Source: a virus (lineage: Duplodnaviria > Caudoviricetes). From it: DNA of 53,337 bases. The DNA lies in the IMG/VR virus record IMGVR_UViG_3300031999_000027, positions 1 through 53,337 of that record. The stretch is one strand, 5' to 3'. Position numbers and translations under genes: made by a program. Below are positions 11,133 through 30,245 of the stretch, piece after piece. A model generated the notes under the pieces. The model was not told where the DNA came from. It saw nothing but the letters and a program-made list of their open reading frames with translations, and did no database searches. Each line of letters opens with the position of its first letter. Within the stretch, counting starts at the first letter, position 1.

Positions 11133-11577
11133 TGAAATGACATGGAAAGAGGTTCTGAAGGGGTCAGCGGATCCCGATTTTTTATCAATAACCGTGCCAG
11201 GGGTCGTAGGAACCACCCGGCATGTAGTCATGAAGATCCCAAGAGGGAAGAGACTAAGCATGTCCAAACTCCGGACACTTATCAAACCTCTTGCGATGAT
11301 AGAAGTCAAGAATATAGCCGATCTGCCGGAGTTAATGAGGACGGATATGATAATACTCTCTCAGGTGGAGGAGATTGGGAAGCATCCGGGGCTCTTATCC
11401 ATCGGAGCAGCAATGGAGTCTGGTATGATAGAAGTAGACACTATCAACGGCAGGATGCTGTTTAATTCGTTTGCTGTTCTATGGTTAGCAACATCAGATG
11501 AGAACATCCCAGAGGGGTTCAAGAAGAACTCCACAGTGATAACAATCCCCGAAGAGGAGGATGTGTTTGAGGAATGA
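11113..11577 (+). CDS. hypothetical protein
   Basis: 154-aa ORF whose stop overlaps the queC start (ATGA). Confidence 0.55.
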   Translation: MSLIRVDEMTWKEVLKGSADPDFLSITVPGVVGTTRHVVMKIPRGKRLSMSKLRTLIKPLAMIEVKNIADLPELMRTDMIILSQVEEIGKHPGLLSIGAAMESGMIEVDTINGRMLFNSFAVLWLATSDENIPEGFKKNSTVITIPEEEDVFEE

Positions 11578-12305
11578 AAGCGATCGCCATCTGTAGCGGA
11601 GGATTGGATTCCACTGTGATGTTGTATGAGATGATCTCGAATAGAATCACTCCTGTGGTGTTGAGTTTCGACTATGGTCAGAGGCACAGGATAGAACTGG
11701 ATTTCATAGAACGAACGGCGAAGAAGCTCAATCTCCGGTGGATCCTCGAACGTATGCCGACGTTTAACTCAGCTCTGACCACAGGAGTAATGGGGGTTAA
11801 TGAGTTTGAGGAACTAACGAAGGCCATGATTCCAAAAGCTAACTACGATGACGCCTCTCAGAAAATCACAGTTGTTCCCAACAGGAATATGATCATGATT
11901 GCCATCGCTGGGGGATACGCTGTTCAGATGGGTGCTCAGGAAATCTGGTATGCGGCACATTCCGGTGATCATGCGATCTATCCCGATTGCCGAGAGAGTT
12001 TCGTCTGTGCGTTGGCCGAAGCCCTAACCGAGGGAACATATGAGAAGATTCAATTGGTTGCCCCGTTCATCAATCTAACAAAGACAGATATCGTCAAACG
12101 AGGAGCGTTATTGGGAGTACCATTCGAAGACACTTGGAGTTGTTATGATCCCCAGAAACCCCTACATTGGGATCCTCATTACGTTGATCTGCAGATGTTG
12201 CAATGTGGGAAGTGTGGAACGTGCAGAGAGCGAATCGAAGCTTTCACTAAGGCAGGTATCAGAGATCCTACTTCCTACGTGAAAAGTAAAGGAGTGAAAA
12301 CCTAG
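11574..12305 (+). CDS. queC: 7-cyano-7-deazaguanine synthase
   Basis: SGGLDS PP-loop, FDYGQRH, VPNRN, YPDCR, TWSCY, CGKCGTC. Confidence 0.97.
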   Translation: MKAIAICSGGLDSTVMLYEMISNRITPVVLSFDYGQRHRIELDFIERTAKKLNLRWILERMPTFNSALTTGVMGVNEFEELTKAMIPKANYDDASQKITVVPNRNMIMIAIAGGYAVQMGAQEIWYAAHSGDHAIYPDCRESFVCALAEALTEGTYEKIQLVAPFINLTKTDIVKRGALLGVPFEDTWSCYDPQKPLHWDPHYVDLQMLQCGKCGTCRERIEAFTKAGIRDPTSYVKSKGVKT

Positions 12306-12349
12306 GAGATTACTACTATGAATACTAATACTACTCGGGGGTCGTTCGT

Positions 12350-12766
12350 TTGATGTACCTGAAGTTTGATGAGATCACGTTTGAAGCGGCGCACTACCTC
12401 CCGGGGTATGATGGGAAGTGCGCTGGGATTCACGGTCATACGTATACAGTGAAGGACTTGGTTATTAGAGTGTCAGAGTTCCTAGATGACCAGGGGATCA
12501 TTGTGGACTTCGGGAAGATCACGGGGTATTTCGCCAAGGAGTGGGATCATAAATTCTTGATCCCGGTTGCTGGCATAGGCTATTGGGAAGACATATATGA
12601 ACACACAGGATTCAAGCCGATGATTGATAACAGAAAGGTTGTTAATTATGGCTCCGATGAATACTGTGCTGAGAGAATCAGAGATGAACTAATGGTGTTA
12701 CATCCAAACATCGCCGAGGTTCATTTCACGTTGTACGAAGGGAAGAACCATGGGGTGTCAGTATGA
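12350..12766 (+). CDS. queD: 6-carboxy-5,6,7,8-tetrahydropterin synthase
   Basis: FEAAH, CAGIHGHTY, VDFG, WDHKFL, LYEG. Confidence 0.93.
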   Translation: MMYLKFDEITFEAAHYLPGYDGKCAGIHGHTYTVKDLVIRVSEFLDDQGIIVDFGKITGYFAKEWDHKFLIPVAGIGYWEDIYEHTGFKPMIDNRKVVNYGSDEYCAERIRDELMVLHPNIAEVHFTLYEGKNHGVSV

Positions 12767-13071
12767 TCGCGTTAACTGCGACGACATCAACCTACGAGCA
12801 ACCCAAATGTCCGGGAAAGTGTTCCGAGGGAGATAACTTAGTATGTCCGTATGCTAGCTGGCAGTATCAGACGTCGTTTGTCACTGTAAACGGTCAAGGG
12901 GGTTCATCGAAGTTCACAAAGTACGTTCATTGTGGGTTGGCGACACCCTTCGTGTGGTATCCCACACCGATATTGAGCCCTTGCCCACATGCGACGTGGA
13001 CAATATGGTGTACGGCATTTGGTCTGGATTGTGAGACTTGTCCTGTGAAGAAAGCGAGGAGTGTCCAATGA
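12763..13071 (+). CDS. Cys-rich hypothetical protein inside the que operon
   Basis: ATGA overlaps with queD and queE; about 9 Cys in 102 aa. Confidence 0.55.
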   Translation: MIALTATTSTYEQPKCPGKCSEGDNLVCPYASWQYQTSFVTVNGQGGSSKFTKYVHCGLATPFVWYPTPILSPCPHATWTIWCTAFGLDCETCPVKKARSVQ

Positions 13072-13772
13072 TAGATCTAGTGGAGATTTTTAGAAGCATT
13101 CAAGGAGAAGGCCCCTTCATCGGGTCACCTGCTGTCTTCGTCAGAGTCCATGGATGTAATCTAGCATGTTCCTTCTGTGATACGAAGTACTCCTGGTACT
13201 CGAACGCCGGGGAGGGTTACAGAGAGGTCGATCCAACAATACTGATCATGGAGATTCTTGACATCGCGAGGATCAACGACATTATCGTCCTGACGGGCGG
13301 GGAACCTATGATCTATCAGGACCAGCTGACACACGTCGCTGGTGTACTTCCACATAAGATTCATATCGAGACTAACGGAACGATCTTGCCTCAGGGAGAG
13401 CAGATCCTCAAGGATATCGATCATTGGGTTGTGAGCCCCAAAGAATGGCAGAAGCCAGAGAATAGAGCTAAGGTCGAATGGTGGTTGGATCATTTCAAGA
13501 AGAATCTCACGATGAAGTTTGTTATATCAACAGAAGACGATGTCGAACTGCTTTCGGAGACGTTTAGACTTCAGAAGGCTCCGTTAGTGGTATTACAACC
13601 AGAGAGGTTCGCAATGACATCAGGGGTACCACATAATGGCAGTCAGCAGGGCCTATATCTAGAGAATATGAAGAAGCTCATTGAATGGGCGGACGCTCAT
13701 CTCAATGGCGTTAACTGGAGGGTTCTCCCGCAGCTCCATTATCTCTTGTGGGGAAACCGACGAGGAGTTTGA
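13068..13772 (+). CDS. queE: 7-carboxy-7-deazaguanine synthase (radical SAM)
   Basis: EIFRSIQGEG, GCNLACSFCDT, LTGGEP, IETNGT, VSPK, PQLH; ATG 13068 preferred over the longer ORF. Confidence 0.95.
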   Translation: MIDLVEIFRSIQGEGPFIGSPAVFVRVHGCNLACSFCDTKYSWYSNAGEGYREVDPTILIMEILDIARINDIIVLTGGEPMIYQDQLTHVAGVLPHKIHIETNGTILPQGEQILKDIDHWVVSPKEWQKPENRAKVEWWLDHFKKNLTMKFVISTEDDVELLSETFRLQKAPLVVLQPERFAMTSGVPHNGSQQGLYLENMKKLIEWADAHLNGVNWRVLPQLHYLLWGNRRGV

Positions 13773-13776
13773 AATA

Positions 13777-14448
13777 ATGAGAAACGAGCAATCACTTGAA
13801 GACACGATAGAGAAAGAAGGAGACTCAGGGTTAGAATCTACCCCGCATCATTATGTTCTGCATAATAAGGACAAGATCATGGACAAATTCCGTGAAATAT
13901 TGCTCCTATCGGGGTTTAATCCCTCGTCGAATCCATTGAGACGTACCCCGGAGAGACAATGGGAGGTTCTCCGAACTATGACAGAAGGGTATGTTATAGA
14001 CCCCACACTTGATAGAATGTATAGAGATTACGCCCTTGGAGACCTTCCCGGTGTGAGAATCTGCCCGGGAATTCACTTCGTTTCATTATGTGAACATCAC
14101 TTCGTTCCATTCTACGGTGTTGTCGACATAGCATACGTTCCTGGTAACGGCAAAGTCACTGGGCTATCTAAACTCCCTCAGCTGGTACAGAAGTACGCCC
14201 GAAGACCTCAGCTTCAAGAGAAGATGGCTGCGCAGATAGCAGACGAACTAATGCAGAGATGTGAAGTTTCCGGGGTCATGGTCATAGCTTCAGGTTATCA
14301 CACGTGTGAGATGATTGAGGGAGTCAAGGAAGGCTTCCATCGAGATAAACCTTATATCACACCAGAGATCCGGGGATCGTTCACCGCGGACACTGGGCTC
14401 AGGGAAGCTACGATGATGCACCTGGGGAGGTTGGCTAAGAATGTATGA
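13777..14448 (+). CDS. folE: GTP cyclohydrolase I
   Basis: RTPER, SLCEHHFVPFYG, GLSKL, RRPQLQE, HTC; ATG 13777 after a GAGGAG RBS. Confidence 0.95.
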   Translation: MRNEQSLEDTIEKEGDSGLESTPHHYVLHNKDKIMDKFREILLLSGFNPSSNPLRRTPERQWEVLRTMTEGYVIDPTLDRMYRDYALGDLPGVRICPGIHFVSLCEHHFVPFYGVVDIAYVPGNGKVTGLSKLPQLVQKYARRPQLQEKMAAQIADELMQRCEVSGVMVIASGYHTCEMIEGVKEGFHRDKPYITPEIRGSFTADTGLREATMMHLGRLAKNV

Positions 14449-14970: not shown

Positions 14971-15627
14971 GTGGAACACCTGATATTCGTTGATAGTCGG
15001 GAGCCTCAAGAGGTAATGCAACGCGTCTGGGATAGGAAGATATCTCATATGGTAAAGGCACTCGAGGTGGGGGATTTTCAAAATGAAAAGGGAAACGCGA
15101 TCATCGAGAGGAAAAGACCGGAGGACATCTGGGGTCGAGTCCTTAACAAATCGAACGGCTGGGATGATCAGATGTCGAGATTGTCAGACTACGCATACGG
15201 ACACAACTGTATGCCATGGCTCATTGTTGAAGGCTCATTCGAGACAGCTTCGAGAAGAACTCATGGGAAGTTTCATCCGGAAGAAACCAGAGGAGCTATT
15301 GTCTCTGCGGCCGTACGATATGGAATTGCGGTGTGGAATGCAGAGAGTCTTGATGATCTCCTCACCACAGTCTGCTCTATTTGCGAGAAAGCTGATCGGG
15401 AACTCGGGCAGCCGAAGCAATTGCCCTTCTCGAGAGTAGCTATGGACAAACGCGCTGCCATACTAATGAACGTTTGCCACGTGTCAGCCAAACAAGCAGA
15501 ACATCTGTTGCATCACTTTGGTTCCATTCGAGGGGTTCTCCTAGCCACGGAGAATCAACTGTCGATCGTCGACGGTGTAGGGTTCATCACAGCAAAGAAG
15601 ATCTGTCAGTATAAGGACTCGGTGTAG
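14971..15627 (+). CDS. ERCC4/XPF-family structure-specific nuclease with HhH domain
   Basis: VDSRE, GDF, IERKxxxD, LIVEG; C-terminal HFGSI...VDGVG helix-hairpin-helix. Confidence 0.9.
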   Translation: MEHLIFVDSREPQEVMQRVWDRKISHMVKALEVGDFQNEKGNAIIERKRPEDIWGRVLNKSNGWDDQMSRLSDYAYGHNCMPWLIVEGSFETASRRTHGKFHPEETRGAIVSAAVRYGIAVWNAESLDDLLTTVCSICEKADRELGQPKQLPFSRVAMDKRAAILMNVCHVSAKQAEHLLHHFGSIRGVLLATENQLSIVDGVGFITAKKICQYKDSV

Positions 15628-17244: not shown

Positions 17245-17461
17245 ACTCTATGATAACATTCCCGAGCCTGCTAGACTAGGGATTGGAAATACCAATGAGG
17301 GCGATTTCATATCCTATACGAATCACACCGCAAACCTCAAACTTCTTGATGAGGCCAAGAAGGAGTTTGAACAGATTAATCCTAATTATGAAGATAATGC
17401 AGATTGGCATGACGCCGATTTAGATGAATGGTTCAAGAAGTGGTTTGGTGATGAAGAATGA
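17231..17461 (+). CDS. hypothetical protein, paralog of 1204-1488
   Basis: DEAKKEF and FKKWFG shared with 1204-1488. Confidence 0.6.
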   Translation: MTKGKLYDNIPEPARLGIGNTNEGDFISYTNHTANLKLLDEAKKEFEQINPNYEDNADWHDADLDEWFKKWFGDEE

Positions 17462-17784
17462 GTAAAACGACTGAAAGAATAGCAGCCGAACTTCTTCATG
17501 ATAAAAATCATGAGGAATTAATAAACTTCCCAGGTGTGCTAAACACTGTAGTTGGGAATAAGATAACAGATGGGAAGGACACTGGAGAGATCAGTATTAT
17601 ATTTCTTGTGGCTAAGAAGAAGAAACTAAGGGGACTAAAGGTAGTTGATAGGATACCACCCACCTATAGGGGTGTCCTAACTGACGTCCAAGAGCTCTCA
17701 TCTAAGGACTTCGATCTAGGACCTACGGATGCTTCTAAAATGAGACCGTCTGATCAGAAGAAACTACTTGGGGTGATGAAGTGA
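17458..17784 (+). CDS. stand-alone protease propeptide-like domain
   Basis: PGVLNTVVGNKITDGKDTGEISIIFLV...IPPTYRGVLTDVQE resembles the N-terminal prodomain of Nal1-like/S1 serine proteases. Confidence 0.5.
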   Translation: MSKTTERIAAELLHDKNHEELINFPGVLNTVVGNKITDGKDTGEISIIFLVAKKKKLRGLKVVDRIPPTYRGVLTDVQELSSKDFDLGPTDASKMRPSDQKKLLGVMK

Positions 17785-18536
17785 GCAGAGATCCTGGATT
17801 ACCTGATATTGCAAGATTTGCAAGTCCTATCTATAATCAAGGTGCTTGTGGCTCTTGTACAGCATTTGGCACTCTTGGAGCTGTGGAACTTGAGATTAGG
17901 AAGATGCATAATACCCCCGATGAGAAACTTGAATTGAGTAGACGTGATCTTTTCAGCTGCTCTGGTGGAACTTGTAATAGAGGTAACTATGTGGATGTTA
18001 CAGTCATTGCAGCTGAGAAGGGTGTCGCATTGAATGATGATTGTCCATACGATGCGATGGATCATAGCTGTGAACAGGGGAGAACGGCCGATTGGTGGAA
18101 GAGAGGAAAGAAGACTACTAAGACTATATCATTCAAAACACACGATGACATGAGAGCGGCTCTTTCAGATGGATATGCCCTTGTGGGTTCGATGGCTGTT
18201 TACACAAGTTTCTTTAACTATAGGAAGGGAGTATATCAACATCTTCCTGGTGAACGGTTGGAGGGATACCACTGTATTTCTATGCATGAATATGATGTAT
18301 CTGATGAATCGGTTCTGATTCAGAACTCATGGGGTGACTGGGGATGTCCCAACCCAAGAAGAACTGACCAACCTTATGGCTATTGTTGGATAAAGATAAC
18401 AGAACTTGATCCTGAGTCATTCAGGGTGGTCGTAAATGATGATCCAATACCAGAGCCTGGACCGGATCCGTCAATATGGGAGAAGATATGGAACTGGATT
18501 ATTATCCTCTTGAGGAGGATATTTGGAGGTAAGTGA
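17781..18536 (+). CDS. papain-family (C1A) cysteine peptidase
   Basis: NQGACGSC (catalytic Cys), GYHCI (His), QNSWG (Asn); Pro-rich linker then an amphipathic C-terminal helix. Confidence 0.92.
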   Translation: MSRDPGLPDIARFASPIYNQGACGSCTAFGTLGAVELEIRKMHNTPDEKLELSRRDLFSCSGGTCNRGNYVDVTVIAAEKGVALNDDCPYDAMDHSCEQGRTADWWKRGKKTTKTISFKTHDDMRAALSDGYALVGSMAVYTSFFNYRKGVYQHLPGERLEGYHCISMHEYDVSDESVLIQNSWGDWGCPNPRRTDQPYGYCWIKITELDPESFRVVVNDDPIPEPGPDPSIWEKIWNWIIILLRRIFGGK

Positions 18537-19291: not shown

Positions 19292-20557
19292 TTGACAATA
19301 CTATTGATGCCCACACTAGATTGTAACTTCCGATGCCTGGCATGCTTTGAAGACCCAATACACTCAAAGACTGTGGTAAATATCCCACTTAATTTAGATG
19401 CTATGGAACAGACATTAGCTAAACTTTGGGAGGACACATATTATCATGGCAGTGGGATTGGGATTCATGGAGGAGAGTGTCTGCTTGCACCACCTGTCGT
19501 ATTAGATAGGCTATTCGAGGTTCAACAAAAGTACACTGGAGGTACTTCAGTAGTAACAAATGCCTCACTGATAACTCCAGCTATTATGAGACTTTTCAAG
19601 AAGTACAAGACTGATGTGTCAGTTAGTGTAGATGGTCCGCCAGAGTATAATCTCTTGAGGGGTCCCAGTCCACTTGACAAAGACATCACGGGAGAGTACA
19701 ACAAGTTACTGAATGACAACATCAAATGGCTTCGAGAAGAGGAGATATCTGTAAGCGTGATGTGCATTATTAACAAGTTTAACTCAGGAGATGCTAAGAA
19801 AGTCAAACGAATGAAGCAATGGTTCAATGAGCTGGCTACGTTGGGAATACGTGGAGGAAGGATTAATCCAATGTATGCTGATGGAGCGGCTAAGAAATAC
19901 GAACTCACTAACGATGAATTGCTGTACGCATATATTGAGTACACTAAGATGACGTTTGAGAGCAGCAAGATGAGATGGTTGCCGTTCAGGGAAATGATAG
20001 ACAACGTGCTTAACTTCAGTTCTTCTCCATGTATCTTTGGAGGGTGTGACTTCTTATGCACACACACTGTGACCATATTCCCCGACGGTTCACTCGGTAA
20101 CTGTGACAGAACATTCTCGGATGGCGTTGGCATAAGAAGCGAGTACGGGAAGAGAGAAGGTAGAACAAGCGCCCTCCAGCAGACACAATGCGCGGGATGC
20201 AATTACTGGAACATATGTAAAGGAGGATGCCCTTGTGAGGGGGTTGACGGCGATTGGAGAAACAAAACTAGATTCTGTGAAGCCATCGCTGGAACATACG
20301 ACTTCATTACAGATTATCTAACAGGACTACTGCCAAATGTGAGAATTTCTAATGACAGTGAACCATTCAGAGCCATGGGTTGGGGTCTTGTAGACAGACC
20401 TACGACATTCGGAAACTACACTGCTAAAACACAAGCTTTACCGCAAACTCAACAGCCAAATGGACATAGCGATAGTCACGGAGATCATCACGGAGATAAA
20501 CCGCATGGTGACCATGCGGATGAGGCACATAATGATCAAGGAGGAGTGAGACAATGA
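19292..20557 (+). CDS. radical SAM/SPASM-domain protein (peptide/protein maturase-like) with H-x-D-repeat C-terminal tail
   Basis: CNFRCLAC (CxxxCxxC), IHGGE, VTNA, SVSVDGP; SPASM C...GNC...CAGC...CKGGC...C. Confidence 0.93.
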   Translation: MTILLMPTLDCNFRCLACFEDPIHSKTVVNIPLNLDAMEQTLAKLWEDTYYHGSGIGIHGGECLLAPPVVLDRLFEVQQKYTGGTSVVTNASLITPAIMRLFKKYKTDVSVSVDGPPEYNLLRGPSPLDKDITGEYNKLLNDNIKWLREEEISVSVMCIINKFNSGDAKKVKRMKQWFNELATLGIRGGRINPMYADGAAKKYELTNDELLYAYIEYTKMTFESSKMRWLPFREMIDNVLNFSSSPCIFGGCDFLCTHTVTIFPDGSLGNCDRTFSDGVGIRSEYGKREGRTSALQQTQCAGCNYWNICKGGCPCEGVDGDWRNKTRFCEAIAGTYDFITDYLTGLLPNVRISNDSEPFRAMGWGLVDRPTTFGNYTAKTQALPQTQQPNGHSDSHGDHHGDKPHGDHADEAHNDQGGVRQ

Positions 20558-21369
20558 AGGAAGTTCAACCGTTTATATCTTTATCGTGGAAAAACCAAGA
20601 AGTCAGACAGAAGTGGGAACCAATCAGACAGGCGATCTATAAGGCAACCTATATTGCAGAATATGAAATGATAAAACGAGGGAAGAGGCACTGCGACGTA
20701 TATACTTTCACTCCCCAGAGATTCGACGAGCAGATGAACTGGGTGATTAATAACGGGTTCGTACCGTTAACGATATTGAAGTCAAAGACATACGAGGGGT
20801 TCGGACACAGGCACTATCCCGCAGATAAGATGGATTGGGACGTGTTCGCATACAGTGTAATAGCTGATACTTATGAGAATGCCAAGAAGTTCCAGCAGGC
20901 GAGCATTGGAAATGTCGATCACCGGATCATAGGACAATTACTAGGCTACCCAGAGTGCTGCATTGATTTCTTCCTTCCCATTTGGCTAGAGAAACGTGTG
21001 ATGGATCCGATGTGGGAGATTGCAGAGAACACTGAAGGGATGAAAAGGACATCGACAGAAATCGAGGTCACCGGAAACCCAATGTTGAATAGGATGGCAA
21101 GGTACTTTGGTCTTCAGGTCTGCCCATTCTTCACCCACAGCTACACCTGTAAAGAAGCCATCAAGTTCAATGAAGCCTGGTACGAAATAATGCACGACCA
21201 TTATCCGTATGAATCCGAAGAACTACTGAAGCTCCTAGCTATGCCTATGACATGGAGCCACCACAACATGATCATCTATGTCGAGCATCCCTTATTCAGG
21301 GGAGCAAGTAATGGATTCGACTGGGACACGAAAAAGGTGGTTAGATGGCTAGGCTCAGCGTCTGCCTGA
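20554..21369 (+). CDS. DUF483-like protein
   Basis: GQLLGYPECCIDFF and PFFTHSYTCKEA resemble DUF483 motifs; ATGA-coupled to the radical SAM gene. Confidence 0.55.
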   Translation: MKEVQPFISLSWKNQEVRQKWEPIRQAIYKATYIAEYEMIKRGKRHCDVYTFTPQRFDEQMNWVINNGFVPLTILKSKTYEGFGHRHYPADKMDWDVFAYSVIADTYENAKKFQQASIGNVDHRIIGQLLGYPECCIDFFLPIWLEKRVMDPMWEIAENTEGMKRTSTEIEVTGNPMLNRMARYFGLQVCPFFTHSYTCKEAIKFNEAWYEIMHDHYPYESEELLKLLAMPMTWSHHNMIIYVEHPLFRGASNGFDWDTKKVVRWLGSASA

Positions 21370-22136
21370 CCGGACATTCCAGACCTCTCTTATCCCAACT
21401 AGTATTTGAGAGAGCCAAGGACATCCTAGATGGTTATGATTGTGAGTTTACGTTCGCATACGATAGAGACCCGGAATCCCCCCATGATGAGTTGATTGAG
21501 ATAGTTAAGTTGCTATTCGATATTAAAGAGGTTGTGATAAGCAAACATCACACCAAGCGAGGAGAGTTACTCAATGATGCGTTTATGAAGAGTTCAGGGG
21601 AGTATTACATATTTTTGGAGAACGATTGGTACTGGGTAGAGGATAGGATCGAAGATGCCATACGGGCATTAGATGAAGTAGACTTCGTTCGGATGGTGCG
21701 CACTCCGTTCAAGAACTTTACCACAATTAAGAATGGTTTCTGCATATTAGCTCCAGAGACAGGTTATGCGTATAACTTTAACCCTAGTGTTAGGAAAGAT
21801 GTATTCCTTATAGGAATATTCAGAGAGGATTTGAACAGCGATCAACTAGAGAGTCTTACATCGACGTTATTCAACGCTATGGGTAAAACAGCTGCAGTAC
21901 TCGATACTGATAGTTTATCCCACATAGGATTTGTCAATAGCAATGGGGTGTTGAGAGAGCAACATTTCATTCGGGAGGGGATTAAGCCTTCACTTATCGA
22001 AGTAGTGAAGTGGTTTGAGTCAATCTCAAAAGATCGGTCGCATATTGATCTTTTCGTAGAGCATCTCCAAACAGAGGTCAGAGGAGCAGACAAAGGAGTG
22101 GAGTTAGATGAAACTTTCAGCAGTAATATCCTATAG
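21345..22136 (+). CDS. GT-A fold glycosyltransferase (GT2-like)
   Basis: LSVCLT start, RGELLNDAF, YYIFLENDW (DxD-like), FNPSV, SHIG. Confidence 0.7.
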   Translation: MARLSVCLTGHSRPLLSQLVFERAKDILDGYDCEFTFAYDRDPESPHDELIEIVKLLFDIKEVVISKHHTKRGELLNDAFMKSSGEYYIFLENDWYWVEDRIEDAIRALDEVDFVRMVRTPFKNFTTIKNGFCILAPETGYAYNFNPSVRKDVFLIGIFREDLNSDQLESLTSTLFNAMGKTAAVLDTDSLSHIGFVNSNGVLREQHFIREGIKPSLIEVVKWFESISKDRSHIDLFVEHLQTEVRGADKGVELDETFSSNIL

Positions 22137-22947
22137 AGACTGCATTAGAACAGGCTATCCGTTCTTAGAATCCATCTTAAGTGTACTGCCGATTGTGGAC
22201 GAGTACCTGATAAACGACGGTGGGTCGATTGATGGAACTCTTGAAGCAACGAAACGATTAGTTGAGATGTATCCTGATAAGATTATATTATTTCAGATTA
22301 AAGATTATCCCTCAGACCATTGGCAGTGTGTCTCCGAACAATACAATAAATTACTTAACGATGCAACTGGAGACTGGATATTCATGGGAAATGCCGATGA
22401 GTTGATGCATGAAGATGACGCGAGAAAGTTTAGGGCAAAGCTAGAAGCATCACCGATTGATATCTTGGTCTACAGACACCTTCGGCGGGAAGTCTCTAAC
22501 TGGTGGAGCGAGATGGGTTCTTATGATTATTACCCTGCAAGAACTGTTCGTAATATAGAAGGGGTTTTTCAGAGTTGGGCAAGTCACGGAGGAGACGAGT
22601 TCTTGGTGCCTGAGTGGAGGTGGTTAAGAGAACCCCCTGAGTGCCAAACATTGGATGGATATATGATGTGGCATTACTACATGATGTTCCCCGAAAACAT
22701 CTTTGAGAAAAGGAAACATGATTCCGAAGAGGTAGCCACAGGAGATAAGGAAAGAATGATCCAGTACGAATGGTGGAAGGAGAACAAAGACAAGATAAAG
22801 CCGCCCGAGTGGTATGGGAAGAAAACTGTTCCGGACCAACCTAGGTCTATGCAGGGATTAGTAGGAGCCTTGAGATATTATGTTAGAGAAGAAATGTTTG
22901 ATAGAAAGTGGATACAGGAAATTTATGAAGGCACAGTATCCCAGTGA
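22108..22947 (+). CDS. glycosyltransferase family 2 protein
   Basis: LSAVI, INDGGSIDGT, ATGDWIFMGNADE. Confidence 0.85.
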   Translation: MKLSAVISYRDCIRTGYPFLESILSVLPIVDEYLINDGGSIDGTLEATKRLVEMYPDKIILFQIKDYPSDHWQCVSEQYNKLLNDATGDWIFMGNADELMHEDDARKFRAKLEASPIDILVYRHLRREVSNWWSEMGSYDYYPARTVRNIEGVFQSWASHGGDEFLVPEWRWLREPPECQTLDGYMMWHYYMMFPENIFEKRKHDSEEVATGDKERMIQYEWWKENKDKIKPPEWYGKKTVPDQPRSMQGLVGALRYYVREEMFDRKWIQEIYEGTVSQ

Positions 22948-24269
22948 GCCACATCATCGTGAGCTATATCTGTATGGTAGTTGGTGTGGGTGTCTACATG
23001 TGCAGTATTTGAATGTGGTGTGTTAACATGCGGAACATTCCCGTGGGAGTTTGAATGATTATTCACATGCGGTGTATTAACATAGCTATTGTAATGTGGA
23101 GTGTTTTCATGCGGAATGTTAGTGTGGCTGTCGCTATGCGGTGTATCCTCATGCACATCTCCGTGTGTATTAGTATGGGTATCTACATGAGCTGTGTCGC
23201 TGTGGACATCTGAGTGAGTGTTCACATGATCGTTCACATGGGCTGTATTGGTGTGGGTATTAGTATGAGGAGTATTATAGTGAGGAGCGTTGCTGTGACT
23301 GTCATTGTGTGCAAGGTCATCATGGACATCTGAATGAGTATCAGCATGGGCACTATCTGAGTGAGTATTGGAATGAGTGTTACTGTGTGGTATATTTTGA
23401 TGTTCCTCAAGCTGGCGGTCAGTATGCGGAACATCTGAGTGAGTATCCGAATGAGAGTTACTATGAGGGGTGTTCGAGTGAGTATTTGAGTGATCATTTA
23501 CATGAGCCACATTGCTATGAGTATCACTATGCGATGTATCACTATGAGAAACATCACTATGGCTATCAGCGTGTGCCGTATCGTCATGAACATCGGTGTG
23601 AAGATTTGTATGAGTGTTGGTATGAGGAGTATTTGCGTGAGGAACGTCTCCGTGAGTGTTTGAATGGTCATTTATGTGCACATTGTCGTAATGGGCATCC
23701 GCATGGGCTGTATCAGTATGAGAGTCACTGTGACTATCATAGTGTGCGGTGTCCTCGTGAACGTCACCATGAGTGTTTGTATGAGTATCTACATGGGGCA
23801 CATTTGAATGGGGGGTATTGACATGAGGAACATTACTGTGGGTATTTAAGTGAACAACATTCGCATGTTCCCCCTCCCTTAATAGCCTCCAAGAGCGAAT
23901 ATCTCCAGTAGATTGATACCTAACGGGAGACGCTTCAGGATGATCAGTTTGTACGGTGTAAATAGACTTCGCGGCAACCGAAGTTCGAATCCGTGGAACT
24001 CCACCTACACCAGTAGCCCCATCTGCTGTTGCTACTATAGTGATTGGAACATACGGTGTATCTAAATGTGCCTTATCTACGTGAACATCGGCGTGCGAAT
24101 CAACGTGGGTATCGGTATGTGAATCCCAATGCTCAGGAGACAGATCCACATCTGTATGATTCTGATGAGGAACATTACTGTGAGTATTCGTATGGGTATT
24201 CATATGGGTATTTTCATGCACGATGTTGACGTGCCCAGCGAGGCGGAGCCCATCATACTGATTCGGCAT
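22923..24269 (-). CDS. H-x-[D/N] repeat protein, last gene of the tail operon (putative tail-tip/fibre protein and radical SAM substrate)
   Basis: 448 aa; 81 H-x-D/N tripeptides by manual count, mostly spaced 4-5 aa; start overlaps the stop of the 984-aa tail gene (TAATG). Confidence 0.85.
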   Translation of the reverse strand: MPNQYDGLRLAGHVNIVHENTHMNTHTNTHSNVPHQNHTDVDLSPEHWDSHTDTHVDSHADVHVDKAHLDTPYVPITIVATADGATGVGGVPRIRTSVAAKSIYTVQTDHPEASPVRYQSTGDIRSWRLLREGEHANVVHLNTHSNVPHVNTPHSNVPHVDTHTNTHGDVHEDTAHYDSHSDSHTDTAHADAHYDNVHINDHSNTHGDVPHANTPHTNTHTNLHTDVHDDTAHADSHSDVSHSDTSHSDTHSNVAHVNDHSNTHSNTPHSNSHSDTHSDVPHTDRQLEEHQNIPHSNTHSNTHSDSAHADTHSDVHDDLAHNDSHSNAPHYNTPHTNTHTNTAHVNDHVNTHSDVHSDTAHVDTHTNTHGDVHEDTPHSDSHTNIPHENTPHYNSYVNTPHVNNHSNSHGNVPHVNTPHSNTAHVDTHTNYHTDIAHDDVAHWDTVPS

Positions 24270-27223
24270 TAAAGATCAGTCCTAAACCACAGTTCGCCGG
24301 TCCGCGGAGTACTTGGATCGCCTGTTTTAAGAGGAAGTATTAGGTGAGCATCCACGTCACTTAAATCTAACGTCGCGAACACATCGATATCACCATCTCC
24401 TCGGAATTTCAACGAGTACCCACCTGATTCTAATGTAATATCCTGAGTCCCCAGAACGGTCATTATTTTGAGTGTACCTCTGCCACCTTCCTCAGTACCA
24501 TCGATCCATCCTATAGGGGTACCATCGGCTTTCTGAATCCCATATTGACCTATCCCCTTTACAGTCACTCCATTAGAGTCTAATATGACATTCCCCCCTC
24601 CGGCAGTAGCTTTGCCCGTAGCTGCATCCAAGGAGAACTGCAACGTTCCTGTTCCCGCAGCTCCAGAATACCCCTTGATCCCAGCTTCGTTGATCATTAT
24701 ATGCCCATCAGCAACGTAAGCCTCCCCTGTTGTCGGATCGAGTTTAAATGTGATCGTTGATGCGTCTTTCATCCCCACAATCCCTAGAGTGTCCGACATG
24801 ATGATTTTCGGATAACCAACCGATGTCTGGATCAAATGACCAGTGATCGTCATCGTAGCCTCAAGATGATCCACAATGATCGACTTAACTGTAATGACCC
24901 CTCCTGATATCGTCGGGAGATAACTATCAAACATTAATATCGTCGGGGGTTTGGAACTATCGGTCTCAACCTTCACTATCGCAATCATTCCAAGACCAGG
25001 TCCTGTTGCTGCAGCATGATCAGTGGTTTGACGTAAAGTTGTGGATGCATCCCAGTAACAGTACCAAACCCCTGCAGCTAAAGTGATCCTTGACGCATAG
25101 AGTAACGCGTCGATTGTCTTAGAACTTCCATCGGAGAATGTCACCTTGGCATTATCAGTGATCGCCCCACCCTTTCCCCAGTAGAACTTATTATTCGACG
25201 GAGTCGCAGAATCGTAAGTAACATACAAGTCCGACGTCCAGGGTCTTAACTCAACATTCAGATCAATCGCCGAGAGTTTTAATGGAGTAGCAACGACCGA
25301 ACTCGTAGCGGCCGATATGTTCTTCGACGTATCAAAGGCCTTCACCCAGAAATACTGTGGAACGTAATCGGATGTTGTCTCTACTACCCAGGCGAAGAAG
25401 TTAGTATTAATCACCGCTATCGGATCTGCAGGGATGCTGTTCGTTGTGTTCCGATAAACTAAGTATCCAGCTAAGTCAGCTTCTGTGTTCACCGTCCATC
25501 GGACAATCACCCCCCCAGGGATTCCAGTAGCTCCTAATCCAGTGGGCACTCCCGGAGGGGTCGTGTCTGTTGCTGCTAATTTATCGACAATCGTCGTCCA
25601 TGGGGAGTACTTATTAAGTTTGGATATCGCCACTGCTTGGAATTTATAAACCAATCCCGGCATACATCTAGGGATCACAAAATAGATATCCGTCCCTGAC
25701 CCCGGATCATCCATAAACAACGTCGTCCAATTCGTTGTGCCGTCGATTCTGACTCTCAACGCATACTGAGTAGCCCCAGTGACTCTAGCTATCTTAACAT
25801 CAAACGTGATCGACACTGTACCATCTGCGGCAATGGCCGATGTTGTTGTAATATCTGACGCGTCGAATCCCGCTGGAGCGGCCAAAGTCGTTCCATAAAG
25901 TTGACCTTCTCCCAAGGTTGTTCCCTTACCTTGGAAGGTTTCAATAGTTAACGAATTAACCCCATCACAGGTGATCTTCGCTAAGAGACCTTTCACGTTC
26001 CCTACGCAGTCACTATACAACTGAGAATAGGTCAGTGCCGCGACCGGCCATAACCAATAAACATACGTGGTTCCCACAGATACAGTGATCGTCTGCTGAG
26101 GAGTCAGATCGATCACTAATGTATCTCCATCAGCGAAGTTGATATTCCCATCCGCCGGTGGGGTAGCCCCGTTGACATTCACTGTGTAGACCGGATCGAT
26201 TACATCTACACTGAACACTATATCGGAATTCCAACCTTGAGAGCCCTTAGGGATCGCTGACGTTATATAAATGCCAAACTCCTCATACTTCGTCAGATCG
26301 ATCACTCTGTCTTCCAACGTCTTATTTGGTGCGTTGATTGATATAAACACCTGATCGAGTCTTCGGACTATCCTCGTGATCCTCTCCGTGGTTCCAGTTA
26401 ATCCTAACGCAGGAACAGTTAACGCTACAGTATCCCCTAGAGATATCACTCCAGAGTCATTCAACGATACTTCTAACTGACTGGGACCGTCTTCGACGTT
26501 CATCTCATTATAATATTTAAGAGCTAACAAATTTAACGTCGTGACATCTGCGGCTTTCTTCTCGGTAAATGATCTTATCTTAGTTCCTAATCCATCATTA
26601 TAGAACCCCTCTAAATACGCCCCAGCTGCGTTTTGTCCTCTAACGTAAACTATATTGACCTTTCCTACTCTATTTTTCATCCTTGACGTCTCTATATCCT
26701 GAATGATCGTGAGAGCTCCTTTATAAGAACCTCTCAGGCCGACGACAAATGTATTCGTCGCTTCAACATAATAATAGTCTGTGTTCGCAATATCCGCTAG
26801 GAACTTTCCAGCATCAAAACATGACGCTCTAGCGAAACGTACAGAAATAACCGGATCAGTCGGCGCAGTCCATGAGACCACAACCCCTGCGGCGAGTCCG
26901 ATGGCAGTCAATATCGTCGACGCAGCGGTCGCCACGTAATTCTCCGTGATCCCCTTGAACGCCATCTTGTAATACACGCTAGGAATGATGCTCGTTTCTA
27001 GAACATCTGCAGCGTGATTCGCTCCGGTGCAGGTTCCGGAGAATAGCAAAGTTGATCCTCCGGTAGTCCACCTCAATGTCGCAGGGCAGTCACTGTTGAC
27101 AATCGTTCGATTCCCTGACGTATTCGGGAGAAATATCTTGCATATCTCCGTACCATTGAGGTTCTCATCTGACTCAGATAACCAACCAGTGGATCCCCCG
27201 ACGATAGACTCATATCCCGTCAT
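24269..27223 (-). CDS. tail tip/baseplate hub protein with fibronectin type III domains
   Basis: 984 aa after the tape measure and Dit-like genes; FN3 signatures (YKFQAVA, DTTPPGVPTGL, DLAGYLVYR, YFWVKAFD). Confidence 0.75.
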   Translation of the reverse strand: MTGYESIVGGSTGWLSESDENLNGTEICKIFLPNTSGNRTIVNSDCPATLRWTTGGSTLLFSGTCTGANHAADVLETSIIPSVYYKMAFKGITENYVATAASTILTAIGLAAGVVVSWTAPTDPVISVRFARASCFDAGKFLADIANTDYYYVEATNTFVVGLRGSYKGALTIIQDIETSRMKNRVGKVNIVYVRGQNAAGAYLEGFYNDGLGTKIRSFTEKKAADVTTLNLLALKYYNEMNVEDGPSQLEVSLNDSGVISLGDTVALTVPALGLTGTTERITRIVRRLDQVFISINAPNKTLEDRVIDLTKYEEFGIYITSAIPKGSQGWNSDIVFSVDVIDPVYTVNVNGATPPADGNINFADGDTLVIDLTPQQTITVSVGTTYVYWLWPVAALTYSQLYSDCVGNVKGLLAKITCDGVNSLTIETFQGKGTTLGEGQLYGTTLAAPAGFDASDITTTSAIAADGTVSITFDVKIARVTGATQYALRVRIDGTTNWTTLFMDDPGSGTDIYFVIPRCMPGLVYKFQAVAISKLNKYSPWTTIVDKLAATDTTPPGVPTGLGATGIPGGVIVRWTVNTEADLAGYLVYRNTTNSIPADPIAVINTNFFAWVVETTSDYVPQYFWVKAFDTSKNISAATSSVVATPLKLSAIDLNVELRPWTSDLYVTYDSATPSNNKFYWGKGGAITDNAKVTFSDGSSKTIDALLYASRITLAAGVWYCYWDASTTLRQTTDHAAATGPGLGMIAIVKVETDSSKPPTILMFDSYLPTISGGVITVKSIIVDHLEATMTITGHLIQTSVGYPKIIMSDTLGIVGMKDASTITFKLDPTTGEAYVADGHIMINEAGIKGYSGAAGTGTLQFSLDAATGKATAGGGNVILDSNGVTVKGIGQYGIQKADGTPIGWIDGTEEGGRGTLKIMTVLGTQDITLESGGYSLKFRGDGDIDVFATLDLSDVDAHLILPLKTGDPSTPRTGELWFRTDL

Positions 27224-27234
27224 GGTTGATCATC

Positions 27235-27633
27235 CTACAGTGATATGATCTGCGATCCTTCCCAGAACTCCGCAGTGTAGAAGAACGCAGTCATTACTCC
27301 TGGGCGTTCCTCAAAACTGATCCCTGCGAATACATACGTTCGTCCGCTGTAGAGTCTCCCAGTAGCGGTAATAGTGACCGTCTTATATACTGCTGCATCA
27401 AGAGGGGTCAAATAAGTAGTCGTTAATGTATCCTTAGACGACGCAGGCATTGTCGAGATGATTCCCTCTATCTGTAGAACGTTCGCCTTCCTTCCAAACG
27501 CTAGAAGTAACGGTAACGCTCCAGGGAATCTCGTCTGTTTAACATCCGCTTGTAACTTATGAACAATCCTCGAGGGAAACCTCGGTAACGTGATCGCTCC
27601 TGCTGTTGGGGTTATAACAAAATTCAAATCCAT
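27235..27633 (-). CDS. distal tail protein-like
   Basis: 132-aa beta-rich protein directly after the tape measure gene. Confidence 0.55.
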   Translation of the reverse strand: MDLNFVITPTAGAITLPRFPSRIVHKLQADVKQTRFPGALPLLLAFGRKANVLQIEGIISTMPASSKDTLTTTYLTPLDAAVYKTVTITATGRLYSGRTYVFAGISFEERPGVMTAFFYTAEFWEGSQIISL

Positions 27634-30245
27634 TTACCCCCCATAGTTTTGGTGAACGTTACAATCGATGAACCCTTCGACGCGGCATCTGCTATCTTCT
27701 GCAAATCTACATCTCCGGAGATATTACCAATCTCAAAGTTCATATACTGTGTCTGATTAACCTGTGGAGTACGATATGCCATCCCTGTATTATCGGTCGG
27801 AGCGGGTGTCGGAACTGGTGTAGGGTTCGCGGGGGTTGTCCAACCAAACGCCTGCCCTAGCCATGAGTTCTTTATCCAGTCAATGATTCCTTGAACAAAC
27901 CCTGTTAAGGCATCTCTGATTCCCCCGAAGTTAGTAACCAACAAGACAATCGCTGCGATCAACAACCCAATAGCTATGACCGGCCAACCAATTGCGGCTA
28001 CCACAGATGCAATCACAGGGATCAGTGTCGTGGTAATGAACCCAACGATAGTACCAATCAAAGGACCCAACCCAAGAATTTGCATAATAAGCCCAGAGAT
28101 TATAGAAATGATAGGAGCAAAGAGTACAAAGATCCCTGCGAGAAATCCCAACGCGGGCATTAGAGGTGTAAGGGCCTTCAGAACATTCAATATTATAGGT
28201 GCGAACAACGCCAGAGTGTTAATCAAAGAAACCAAGAACGCCCCTATAGGACCTCTTAATGCCTCAGCGATGGCATTGATTATGATAATCAAACCAGGCC
28301 CTGCTTGAATAGCAATCGCCATCATAGCGAGAGTTATATTCCCTAACGCCACTTGAACATTTAATGCTTCCTTAGGGAAGTCAGTAAGAACCTGCAGGTT
28401 CTCCGCAGTTCTCGCCGGAGTAGTTCCCCCACCGTATCCAGCCTGTTGTAACCCTATAGCCTCAGCAACAGAGGAAATCGTTTCCTCCCATTGTGCCATA
28501 GTATCAATGAGAGTCTTCAACGTCGAAGTCGCAATATTCCATATTATCCTATTTAGCTGCATCATCCTATACGCTAGGAAGAACAGCCCTCTACCCATAG
28601 CCCCTCCAGCAGATCCAGCCGCTCCTTCTCCAGCTGGACCTCCTACCCCACCCTGTGCTTCAGCTGCTTCAGCACCTTCGCTTAACCCAGTGACATCTCC
28701 AGTTCTCTCAGCGTATTCTTCCTCCGTCTCCGGGCGTTGCCTACCATACACAGGTTCTCTTACTGTTCTCTTTTTGCCGTTCTCTTGTTTTTCAACCTCT
28801 TTAAACCCAAGTATATCTCTGATATACTGTCTAGGAACCTCTGTCAGTGGAGGTTCTTGCTCCCTCTTGAACAACTCAGCTATTCGACTTCTGAAACTCT
28901 GCTTAATCAGTCCCATAACTCCAACTTCTCTTGGAACCTCTCCAGGCATCCCTTCCGCTCCAGGGGGCACCTTACTAACCTCAGCCATAGATTCAACATA
29001 AGCTCCCTCGAAGGCTGAGTTGATTAAATCGAATGTCTCCTTGGCACCGAGACCTCCAGCGGTCCATCGTTGCTCACCATGTCTCTTTCCCTCCGCTGTC
29101 TCCCATATGTCCTCCGACCTAAGTGTGGGTGGGATAGCAGCCATTAACCTTTCAGTAATCCCCTTTCTAGCTTCCTCAGGAATTGTCTCCTTTGTAAGCT
29201 GTTCCATCTGTTTCATTAACTCAGGGATCTGTTCCTCTGGAGGTATTACCTCCCGAGTAGCCGCCATCCACATCCTTGGCGCAGGTCCCTCACGCAGTTC
29301 ATTGTACGCATCAAAGCTCTTTTTCATACTGTCTTTATAATACTTCTGAAGATCCGTTTTACTAAGCATCGCCTTAGGCATAAGTGCCTCTCTTGGAGGA
29401 ATCTTTACAGGACCTTTCTTAGTTAATACCTCCCCTTGTATAGCTTCGACTAAATTCTGCTCCTTCTCAGTGTCCTCAATGATTGATTGTATCAAAGTCG
29501 GAAGGGCCGTGATCATCGAATCCACTAATTCTCTCTTACCCTTGGATTTCATCATCATATTCAATGATGCTATCAATTGTTGCTGAACGGCTTTGCTTTT
29601 CCTAGACGAAGGCCTAAGTGTCCTTTCTGTTGCCTCAATTAGAGTGAACCCCTCACCTTCTTCGTCCTCCTCTTCCTCTCCTGAAGGTACAGCTCCTGTC
29701 GCAGCGGCAGCAATCCCAGATTTGATCCTCGCTGCGTCGGCCTCCGCTTCCTTCGCGACTCGTTTCTCTTCCTCTACCGCGTCCTCCTCAGCTTCTTCAA
29801 ACTTAGCCTCTTTTAATTGTGCGAGAAGTTCCTCCTCAGTTAACACTGACTCCCCTGGTTGAAGATCCGTTCTAATATTAGTCTCTGGAATGCCTAACTT
29901 CATCCCTAGAGACCCAGGAATAAACTGCGTAGTCCTCGCAATAGTCGGCGCACCAGTGGGCCTTCTCCCAGAAGGCAACTCAACCCGTTTCTTAGGATTC
30001 CTAAACTCCTTAGGGGGTTGTTCTTTGCCAAAAACCTGCGTTACATTCGCGGCATCTTCCCTTGATAACGGTTGTCTGGTACTATAAACAGCCGCTGTTG
30101 CACTCTGAAGATCCTTTATTTGCTCCGTAGCTTGTTTCGCATCATCTGTGAGACTTTTGAGCTCCCTTTTGACTTCCTCTATAGCTCTAGTATCTCCCTT
30201 CTTTGCAGATACCTCAACCTCAAGTTTCTTCTCGGTTTCCGCCAA
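27624..30245 (-). CDS. tape measure protein
   Basis: 873 aa, helical, hydrophobic C-terminal repeats, downstream of the tail chaperones. Confidence 0.8.
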   Translation of the reverse strand: MAETEKKLEVEVSAKKGDTRAIEEVKRELKSLTDDAKQATEQIKDLQSATAAVYSTRQPLSREDAANVTQVFGKEQPPKEFRNPKKRVELPSGRRPTGAPTIARTTQFIPGSLGMKLGIPETNIRTDLQPGESVLTEEELLAQLKEAKFEEAEEDAVEEEKRVAKEAEADAARIKSGIAAAATGAVPSGEEEEDEEGEGFTLIEATERTLRPSSRKSKAVQQQLIASLNMMMKSKGKRELVDSMITALPTLIQSIIEDTEKEQNLVEAIQGEVLTKKGPVKIPPREALMPKAMLSKTDLQKYYKDSMKKSFDAYNELREGPAPRMWMAATREVIPPEEQIPELMKQMEQLTKETIPEEARKGITERLMAAIPPTLRSEDIWETAEGKRHGEQRWTAGGLGAKETFDLINSAFEGAYVESMAEVSKVPPGAEGMPGEVPREVGVMGLIKQSFRSRIAELFKREQEPPLTEVPRQYIRDILGFKEVEKQENGKKRTVREPVYGRQRPETEEEYAERTGDVTGLSEGAEAAEAQGGVGGPAGEGAAGSAGGAMGRGLFFLAYRMMQLNRIIWNIATSTLKTLIDTMAQWEETISSVAEAIGLQQAGYGGGTTPARTAENLQVLTDFPKEALNVQVALGNITLAMMAIAIQAGPGLIIIINAIAEALRGPIGAFLVSLINTLALFAPIILNVLKALTPLMPALGFLAGIFVLFAPIISIISGLIMQILGLGPLIGTIVGFITTTLIPVIASVVAAIGWPVIAIGLLIAAIVLLVTNFGGIRDALTGFVQGIIDWIKNSWLGQAFGWTTPANPTPVPTPAPTDNTGMAYRTPQVNQTQYMNFEIGNISGDVDLQKIADAASKGSSIVTFTKTMGGKWI

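Follow-up and report, generated by a model that had tools for sequence, protein, structure and literature searches.

Why should a viral enzyme with the hallmarks of a protein maturase end in a short array of a motif that fills a protein encoded nearby? The question is raised by the virus record IMGVR_UViG_3300031999_000027 of IMG/VR, whose 53,337 nucleotides (here referred to as the window) represent the whole record, estimated to be 89% complete, and encode a tailed virus with family B polymerase, tail tube and portal-like genes. At 19292-20557 on the plus strand lies a gene for a radical S-adenosylmethionine (SAM) enzyme of the SPASM subgroup which terminates in six His-x-Asp (H-x-D) triplets, and a gene on the opposite strand encodes a protein in which nearly every histidine begins an H-x-D or H-x-N triplet. 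The co-occurrence of the two genes, the residue grammar of the triplets and the fold of the enzyme together suggest a viral radical SAM/SPASM maturase that, aided by a DUF483-like protein, probably modifies aromatic-x-Asp/Asn triplets in proteins of the tail-fibre region, the likely products being cyclophanes. The C-terminal tail is conserved across the enzyme family and is neither a chance occurrence nor a decaying copy, and it may act as a mimic of the substrate, which is a more tentative proposal.

The assignment of the enzyme is straightforward at the level of the superfamily. The length of 421 residues presumes a TTG start codon; the database copy of the protein (P0001) has 416 residues and seemingly begins at a later start. 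The protein contains the CxxxCxxC cluster motif (Cys11, Cys15 and Cys18; 19322-19345, plus strand) and matches Pfam PF04055 with 36.5 bits against a gathering cut-off of 29.5, which are the two features that define a radical SAM enzyme. The SPASM subgroup is marked by a seven-cysteine pattern, Cx9-15Gx4C ... Cx2Cx5Cx3C ... C, which corresponds to two auxiliary clusters, and a regular-expression search finds this pattern at 20030-20278 (plus strand) as Cys252-x13-Gly266-x4-Cys271, Cys300-x2-Cys303-x5-Cys309-x3-Cys313 and Cys329, with Cys247 located ahead of it. Across an alignment of 60 relatives (A1), Cys11, Cys15 and Cys18 are at least 90% conserved, and Cys252, Gly266, Cys271, Cys300, Cys303, Cys309, Cys313 and Cys329 are invariant.

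An AlphaFold2 model calculated from the same 60-row alignment has a confidently predicted core, with a mean predicted local distance difference test score (pLDDT) of 88.7 and a predicted template modelling score of 0.86. In the model a post-SPASM segment (residues 350-385; 20339-20446, plus strand) packs onto the core, the ten-residue pLDDT blocks over residues 341-380 being 95, 83, 92 and 89, and the segment bears an 'RP[ST]..G'-like motif that is also seen in the C-termini of homologs. Foldseek returned anSMEcpe (4k36; E 2e-16, TM-score 0.63/0.72) as the best match to the model; the next solved fold is that of ChlB (9gm3; E 9e-14, TM-score 0.65/0.72), a three-residue-cyclophane-forming enzyme (3-CyFE), followed by CteB and SuiB. 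The highest-scoring NCBIfam models are those of peptide maturases, some of them cyclophane-forming (DynA, DarW, AmcB, PapB, YhhB, GrrM/OscB, XyeB and HxsB), and of anSME, but all of them fall far under their cut-offs and the enzyme therefore belongs to none of these curated families. For the curated 3-CyFE models the scores and cut-offs in bits are 25.4 and 450 (XyeB, TIGR04496), 37.1 and 310 (GrrM/OscB, TIGR04261), 39.8 and 445 (YhhB, NF041707), and 59.3 and 425 (AmcB, NF041718). Two homologous enzymes, P0051 (736 residues) and P0121 (755 residues), have an intein inserted in them (Pfam Intein_splicing and LAGLIDADG_3).

The tail is located beyond all of these elements. A first-pass annotation of the window had read 20465-20536 (plus strand) as six H-x-D triplets placed after the SPASM domain and a Q/P linker, and translation agrees: the segment encodes 24 residues, 392-415 of the 421-residue open reading frame (ORF). 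The triplets start at residues 392, 396, 400, 405, 408 and 413, with spacings of 4, 4, 5, 3 and 5; six of the seven histidines in the tail begin a triplet, and the third position is Asp only. When the last 36 residues were shuffled 200,000 times with their composition kept, the mean was 1.14 triplets and the probability of six or more was 5e-6, and for the 24-residue core alone it was 3e-5, thus the register is non-random. The tail comes after the last conserved SPASM cysteine, Cys329, and a Q/P-rich stretch, at the end of which (residues 386-391; 20447-20464, plus strand) the pLDDT drops first to 55 and then to values under 50. Since the pLDDT declines after about residue 385, the first triplet stands approximately seven residues past the last confidently modelled position, and residues 390-421, all below 50, are predicted to be disordered. 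Co-folding of the core (residues 1-385 with three 4Fe-4S clusters and SAM) with the tail (residues 386-421) gave a score of 0.02 against a mark of 0.32, which bears neither way on docking. The DNA of the last six residues and the stop codon (20537-20557, plus strand) also contains a Shine-Dalgarno-like sequence, AAGGAGG, that would serve the following gene, the start codon of which overlaps the stop as ATGA.

When the whole window was scanned in six frames, 30-residue stretches with at least four H-x-[D/N] triplets were found only in the radical SAM gene and in the gene of the repeat protein (22923-24269, minus strand). The latter product, the presumed substrate, has 448 residues and 82 histidines, of which 81 have either Asp (40) or Asn (41) two positions on; the histidines are mostly spaced by four (42 times) or five (33 times) residues, the count of H-x-S is zero, and no Pfam, NCBIfam or PHROG family matched the protein. 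The two genes are convergent, and the 2,366 bases measured from the end of the radical SAM gene to the 3' end of the repeat gene accord with the earlier estimate of about 2.4 kb. The repeat gene is the last in a tail operon that runs from a tape measure gene (27624-30245) through a gene for a 132-residue protein and one for a 984-residue virion protein (24269-27223, minus strand; PHROG 32822 'virion structural protein', E 1e-8), the stop codon of which overlaps the start of the repeat gene. A homolog of the 984-residue protein also precedes the repeat protein in another locus (L007). Antisense open frames over the repeat gene, such as 23309-23821 (plus strand, 170 residues), are by-products of the codon periodicity of the repeats and not genes. 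The possibility that the repeat gene recently gave rise to the tail by copying was considered and rejected: of the 48 aligned bases no more than 32 are identical, and the nucleotide score of 20 lies modestly above those of 300 codon shuffles (mean 12.2, maximum 18), a likeness that is accounted for by the common peptide register.

The tail is not peculiar to the window. With a word-indexed protein search, 136 relatives were recovered at E ≤1e-5; the best 120 of them, together with enzymes read from viral loci, amount to 163 non-redundant enzymes. At least two H-x-D triplets are present within the last 80 residues in 118 of the 163, and at least three in 103, hence the notion that homologs would fail to keep the register, which had been put forward as a possible refutation, does not hold. 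Among the relatives listed, H-G-D arrays recur at the C-terminus in copy numbers from 2 to more than 12, mostly with a period of five residues (399 of 561 inter-triplet gaps over the 163 enzymes). The three closest relatives among the matches listed (65-68% identity) preserve the His and Asp although the X2 residues between them vary, and the tail is retained down to about 28-30% identity of the core. Conservation in A1 reaches 90% or more at the tail columns H396, G397, D398, H408 and D410, which is a biased estimate since its rows were hand-picked and 56 of the 60 are tail-bearing. In a tree built with FastTree from 153 enzymes after removal of their tails (113 tailed and 40 tail-less), tail presence switches at least 17 times, compared to a mean of 35.5 (range 29-40) in 200 label shuffles. 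The tail is thus inherited in clades, yet its gains or losses have been numerous, and the partner was retained throughout them.

Several details of the homologous C-termini deserve mention in their own right. Many H-G-D tails close with S-P-D-W-R/K after the last triplet (for example P0027, P0031, P0034 and P0044, and the enzymes of L072, L075 and L090), and in a Bathyarchaeota-like clade a C-terminal Cys follows zero to three triplets. The enzymes of seven loci (L011, L029, L037, L038, L050, L053 and L055) have exactly two adjoining triplets (P-H-A-D-H-T-D) and then a conserved Tyr/Phe-rich extension of about 20 residues, so that the C-terminal element of this subfamily looks fixed, unlike the expandable array. 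An invariant H-x-D-H-x-D kernel as the ancestral unit of the tail was rejected, as it occurs in only 36 of the 163 enzymes. Identity with pentapeptide repeats was likewise discarded, with one of eight long-tailed homologs reaching Pfam Pentapeptide_2: the tail in residues 208-246 of P0100 scores 27.0 bits against the cut-off of 26.4 and the seven other long tails fall below it, which is probably a low-complexity coincidence.

The association of the enzyme with repeat proteins extends over many loci. A search of viral contigs with the single enzyme sequence found no relatives, and the alignment A1 was needed; used as a profile, it located 62 loci on viral contigs, 70 on metagenome contigs and 5 on genome contigs. 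The last of these comprise four Bathyarchaeota metagenome-assembled genomes (MAGs) and one of Planctomycetota, and as they were found with one narrow pattern they say nothing on the frequency of the family in cells. A repeat protein was called where an ORF had at least six H-x-[D/N] triplets covering at least 60% of its histidines. By this measure, the 46 non-redundant viral loci divide into 26 with tail and repeat protein, 14 with the repeat protein only, 3 with the tail only and 3 with neither; for the 92 non-redundant viral and metagenome loci the corresponding numbers are 44, 22, 17 and 9, the misses being mostly on short contigs. When the comparison is restricted to the 30 non-redundant loci whose two flanks are each 5 kb or longer, 18 have both, 11 have a repeat protein beside a tail-less enzyme, one has a tail without a repeat protein (L121) and none has neither. 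The presence of a repeat ORF in 29 of the 30 makes the link between the two genes, previously proposed on the shared pattern, far stronger than the pattern alone would. One locus once classed as tail only (L001) proved to have a repeat gene further downstream when a longer flank was available (L070). The proposal to check whether tails are kept only near a repeat protein has no discriminating power, since hardly any locus lacks the partner, which also accompanies 11 tail-less enzymes among the 30.

The loci also reveal what kind of protein the partner is. The closest relatives of the window locus (L069, L070 and L076) have the convergent layout in common with it, whereas in most other loci the repeat gene is directly upstream of the radical SAM gene on the same strand. 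There are up to five repeat paralogs per locus (L050, L053), and the partner ORFs span 142-910 residues with tens to more than 100 triplets. Among ten large repeat proteins from other loci, two have collagen triple-helix repeats and tail-fibre PHROG matches, three match PHROG 8917 (unknown function) and five have no match. In L038 (4859-6481) and L055 (6501-8183), an N-terminal collagen triple-helix region is followed by H-x-[D/N] arrays, which ties the repeat family to trimeric phage fibres.

The residues that replace histidine in the partners are informative as to what is being selected. The 71 distinct repeat ORFs contain 2,227 H-x-[D/N] triplets and, in the same register, 508 X-x-[D/N] positions where X is not His. 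Tyr (142), Phe (88) and Trp (40) make up 53% of these against a background of 5.9%, corresponding to 7.6-, 12.6- and 9.7-fold enrichments, respectively; Thr is found 133 times (1.9-fold), as part of longer units. The enrichment of Tyr, Phe and Trp indicates that the selected property of the partners is an aromatic ring two positions before Asp/Asn and not metal-binding His as such. The partners, with 81 such triplets in the window and the Tyr/Phe/Trp replacements across the 71 ORFs, thereby show the aromatic-X2-X3 triplet on which the triceptide synthases discussed below act.

The grammar of the tails is a specialised one. Of 115 tail triplets, 114 have Asp at the third position, where the triplets of the partners have Asp 1,371 times and Asn 407 times; Gly occupies X2 in 53% of the tail triplets but in 10% of the 1,778 substrate triplets; and the residue before 'GD' in the tails is His in 523 of 538 cases (97%), with five Phe or Tyr among the 15 others. 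Since this Asp-only H-G-D grammar differs from that of the partner, the tail is no copy of the local partner and has a selected consensus of its own. The original observation that the enzyme bears the motif of the repeat protein is thus correct as regards the register but not the identity of the motif, which is H-x-[D/N], half of it Asn, in the partner and Asp only in the tail. H-G-D is, on the other hand, within the grammar of the putative partner substrates.

A second conserved companion of the enzyme is encoded immediately downstream. The gene for a 271-residue DUF483-like protein (20554-21369, plus strand; Pfam DUF483 E 1.9e-4, below the cut-off) overlaps the stop codon of the radical SAM gene and is translationally coupled to it. 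In tblastn searches its relatives were found in 55 of 67 loci, mostly just downstream of the radical SAM gene, and the atlas clusters that match it carry DUF483 and are mostly viral. Its structure matches in the atlas include viral clusters in which 43% of the members are assigned to DUF483 and 26-35% to a methyltransferase family.

The same set of genes is present in cultured phages of Thermus. The radical SAM (rSAM) enzymes of Cumys, phiMa and phiLo are the only cultured-phage matches, and those of Cumys and phiMa are 29-30% identical to the enzyme of the window. In both of these phages the baseplate genes are followed, in this order, by the gene for a 'tail collar fiber protein', a small ORF and the genes of the repeat protein, the radical SAM enzyme and the DUF483 protein. 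All histidines of the repeat proteins are in H-x-D triplets (54 of 54 in Cumys_13 and 53 of 53 in phiMa_29), and the enzymes end in an H-G-D tail with four H-x-D triplets and one Y-x-D triplet. The jumbo phage phiLo likewise has a tailed enzyme, and an ORF located 4.4 kb from it has 75 of its 76 histidines in H-x-[D/N]; the gene that follows its enzyme (L140, 7479-8513) is annotated as a methyltransferase. The Thermus phage module therefore has the same components as the window, a DUF483 gene next to the radical SAM gene and a third conserved gene for the repeat protein, and it follows baseplate and fibre genes; its order is repeat-rSAM-DUF483, whereas the repeat gene of the window is convergent. 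In its available text, a preprint (bioRxiv 10.1101/2024.08.14.607894) describes the 'rSAM module' of Cumys with a third gene of 'unknown function' and suggests DNA modification, and it reports homologs of the radical SAM and DUF483 genes beside deazapurine DNA-modification genes in cyanobacteria. The H-x-D repeats and the tail are unmentioned in that text, in which the word 'histidine' occurs zero times.

Taken together, a mechanism can be outlined in which the real partners of the enzyme would be large tail-fibre-region proteins filled with aromatic-x-Asp/Asn triplets, represented in the window by the product of 22923-24269. The enzyme would cross-link each triplet in the manner of triceptides, joining a ring carbon of His, Tyr, Phe or Trp to the beta-carbon of the Asp or Asn two residues on, with a loss of 2 Da for each triplet. 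The disordered and tethered tail would repeat the minimal triplet in a specialised form, His-Gly-Asp mostly with a period of five, and could enter the enzyme's own substrate channel, where it might either be cyclised as a cis-substrate or serve as a placeholder until displaced by the multivalent fibre protein. It is kept by selection of its own and not as the decaying copy of a neighbour. That the tail mimics the substrate in this way is the preferred explanation, although it falls somewhat short of being probable; a self-modified segment and an autoinhibitory pseudo-substrate, both suggested earlier, are each possible, and sequence cannot separate them. A bolder version, in which the enzyme is a self-modifier that converts its own H-G-D triplets into strained His-Asp cyclophanes and would thus be the first such counterpart to the borosins among radical SAM enzymes, seems unlikely. 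If true, it would provide an enzyme-borne, protease-resistant element for metal binding or docking, made by the same chemistry that staples dozens of triplets in the fibre protein, and both a virion protein and its maturase would contain cross-links of the peptide-antibiotic type.

A number of observations weigh against the proposed maturase with a substrate-like tail. All NCBIfam models of cyclophane maturases score far under their cut-offs. The tail is dispensable, as 11 of the 30 well-flanked loci have the partner without it and its state changes at least 17 times on the tree, and no small separate genes for H-G-D peptides were present beside the 17 tail-less enzymes that were scanned. The grammar of the tail is much narrower than that of the partners, whereas one would expect of a simple additional substrate the same freedom in Asp/Asn and in the aromatic residue, and strict His and Asp are what a set of metal ligands would show.

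Accordingly, the alternative that comes closest is a metal-binding tail that never enters the active site, with the H-G-D arrays binding Fe, Zn, Ni or Cu and perhaps either helping to load the three Fe-S clusters or connecting the enzyme, through shared metal ions, with the His/Asp arrays in the fibre protein. The strictness of the tail His (523 of 538) and Asp (114 of 115), in contrast to substrates that swap His for Tyr, Phe or Trp and Asp for Asn, is what such a role predicts, and the disorder of the tail and its copy number of 2 to more than 12 resemble known His-rich tails; a Gly after the His would also suit coordination by backbone amides on chemical grounds. Generic His-rich metal tails are generally irregular, however, while here the i/i+2 register of the partner is kept in nearly every tail triplet, a coincidence that metal binding leaves unexplained, and enzymes with the same cysteine pattern exist that have no tail. 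His-crosslinked copper-binding peptides made by radical SAM enzymes do exist, according to the accessible part of PMC10206099. On balance, a metal-binding tail appears possible but somewhat doubtful. A mixed function, such as metal binding by a tail that has first been cyclised, is quite possible. A purely non-catalytic tether, holding the enzyme to the repeat protein, to the DUF483-like partner or to the assembling tail, would favour processivity on a long multivalent substrate, which with tens to more than 100 triplets could well benefit from it. The variable copy number of the tail and the nearly constant presence of the DUF483-like partner are in line with such a tether, as is the complex of HxsC with its small partner HxsD in the HXS system (PMC13128918, accessible text). 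Like-charged acidic His/Asp arrays would nevertheless need mediation by metal or by a partner, and similar partners are served by tail-less enzymes, thus this explanation seems decidedly unlikely.

There is still less to recommend the two remaining explanations. The tail could be the relic of a precursor-enzyme fusion, as once suggested, or functionless low-complexity drift, and its repeated loss (at least 17 state changes), its very variable copy number and a nucleotide score against the repeat gene slightly over that of codon-shuffled controls could be taken that way. The motif is, however, present in 118 of 163 enzymes and persists down to about 28-30% core identity, its own H-G-D consensus is unlike the local repeat proteins, and in close relatives the His and Asp are held while their neighbours vary. 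Among longer proteins no natural fusion of the enzyme to a full repeat protein was seen, the sole match being the intein-bearing enzyme of 755 residues, which is weak evidence. A relic or drift is accordingly disfavoured and very improbable. An equally slim chance is given to the radical SAM/DUF483 module acting on DNA or another non-protein target, with the tail and the repeat protein not being substrates at all. The cyanobacterial gene neighbourhoods of the Cumys preprint and the QueC, QueD, QueE-like and FolE genes of the window speak for it, but the latter genes form a separate block 5-8 kb away, the repeat protein is a near-constant neighbour of the enzyme (29 of 30 loci) and accompanies it in Cumys and phiMa as well, and the enzyme resembles peptide and protein maturases in both fold and sequence.

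The other genes around the locus appear to be accessory or unrelated to the conserved module. The DUF483-like gene is followed by one for a weakly recognised GT2-like protein of 263 residues (21345-22136, plus strand; Pfam Glycos_transf_2 E 1.4e-3, below the cut-off) and one for a family 2 glycosyltransferase of 279 residues (22108-22947, plus strand; PF00535 with 32.4 bits against a cut-off of 23.3), for which tblastn found relatives in 0 and 4 of the 67 loci, respectively. Just upstream of the radical SAM operon, 17458-18536 encodes a small protease-like ORF (PHROG 20754) and a C1 peptidase of the papain family. The peptidase (17781-18536) was rejected as a conserved tail-cleaving partner, since it was present at 0 of the 67 loci and hence lies outside the conserved module; the small protease-like ORF is likewise conserved in none of them, and that the two proteins process the repeat protein or the tail in the virus of the window is possible but unsupported. 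Farther away, 11574-14448 contains a full preQ0/7-deazaguanine gene set, namely QueC (11574-12305), QueD/PTPS (12350-12766), a QueE-like small radical SAM protein (13038-13772) and GTP cyclohydrolase I (13681-14448), which suggests deazapurine modification of DNA by the virus. At 14971-15627 there is an ERCC4/XPF-type nuclease with a C-terminal pair of helix-hairpin-helix motifs, an architecture of archaeal or eukaryotic style that fits the Bathyarchaeota relatives of the radical SAM enzyme. An archaeal host is possible, as Bathyarchaeota MAGs contain the closest cellular homologs identified here for the enzyme.

If the proposed maturase is real, it would be the first case of radical SAM cross-linking of a virion protein and the first radical SAM maturase with a built-in substrate-like tail, whether the tail serves self-modification, autoinhibition or metal handling. 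No description of an enzyme-borne tail of this kind or of the viral repeat proteins was found in the open-access literature, subscription journals and supplements being outside the scope. With Cumys and phiMa, the question is open to a direct test in cultured Thermus phages.

Comparison with known systems places the locus beside, but not within, several of them. The best structural match, anSMEcpe (PDB 4k36-4k39), is a radical SAM/SPASM enzyme that likewise acts on a whole protein substrate, although it is only about 20% identical to the enzyme of the window, which scores 59.7 bits against a cut-off of 349 for TIGR03942, and in contrast to anSME no sulfatase or target of the Cys/Ser-x-x-x-R type is evident in the window. 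A repeat tail is not known from anSME. A maturase acting on a core peptide that forms its own C-terminal end has a precedent in the borosins of the OphMA type (PMC7878506, available text). The borosin enzyme is a methyltransferase and its tail is its sole substrate, with no separate large one, whereas the enzyme of the window is a radical SAM enzyme. The borosin tail is released as the product.

The HXS system, as far as it is described in the accessible text of PMC13128918, also has a radical SAM-matured protein with repeats of His-x-small residue and a small partner protein. It is a bacterial antiphage defence, however, in which HxsA has five His-x-Ser repeats and is served by two radical SAM enzymes, HxsB and HxsC, along with HxsD, whereas the window has one viral radical SAM enzyme and a DUF483-like protein; the HXS modification is a change of +8 Da at one motif, and an enzyme-borne repeat tail is not mentioned in that text. 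The enzyme of the window does not belong to HXS: its score for HxsB (TIGR03978) is 34.3 bits against 370, it is the only radical SAM enzyme of its module and H-x-S is absent from its partner.

The closest parallel is seen with the triceptide synthases XncB, OscB, MscB, YxdB, HaaB, YhhB, ChlB and MicB, in which a radical SAM/SPASM enzyme acts on repeated aromatic-X-X3 triplets of its substrate, as is proposed here. From the accessible parts of PMC11002830 and PMC12912966, a triceptide is an i to i+2 link between a ring carbon and a beta-carbon, with His as the ring donor for HaaB, YhhB and MicB and Asp or Asn as the beta-carbon acceptor for OscB and YxdB; the combination His-x-Asp is not among the triceptide motifs given there, and PMC12912966 counts ChlB among the enzymes that form three-residue cyclophanes. 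The substrates of these enzymes are short leader-core peptides, whereas the partners examined here are virion-region proteins of 140-900 residues, some with collagen or tail-fibre features, that have tens to more than 100 triplets. As the substrates are whole proteins and the cut-offs are unreached, the system stands outside the curated 3-CyFE families, and it further differs from the triceptide synthases in being encoded by viruses, in having a DUF483-like partner and in the triplets at the enzyme's own C-terminus. Radical SAM cyclophane chemistry is known from small secreted peptides, while here the same grammar fills whole tail-fibre-region proteins in many uncultured viruses and three cultured Thermus phages, and the enzyme itself bears a conserved miniature version of it.

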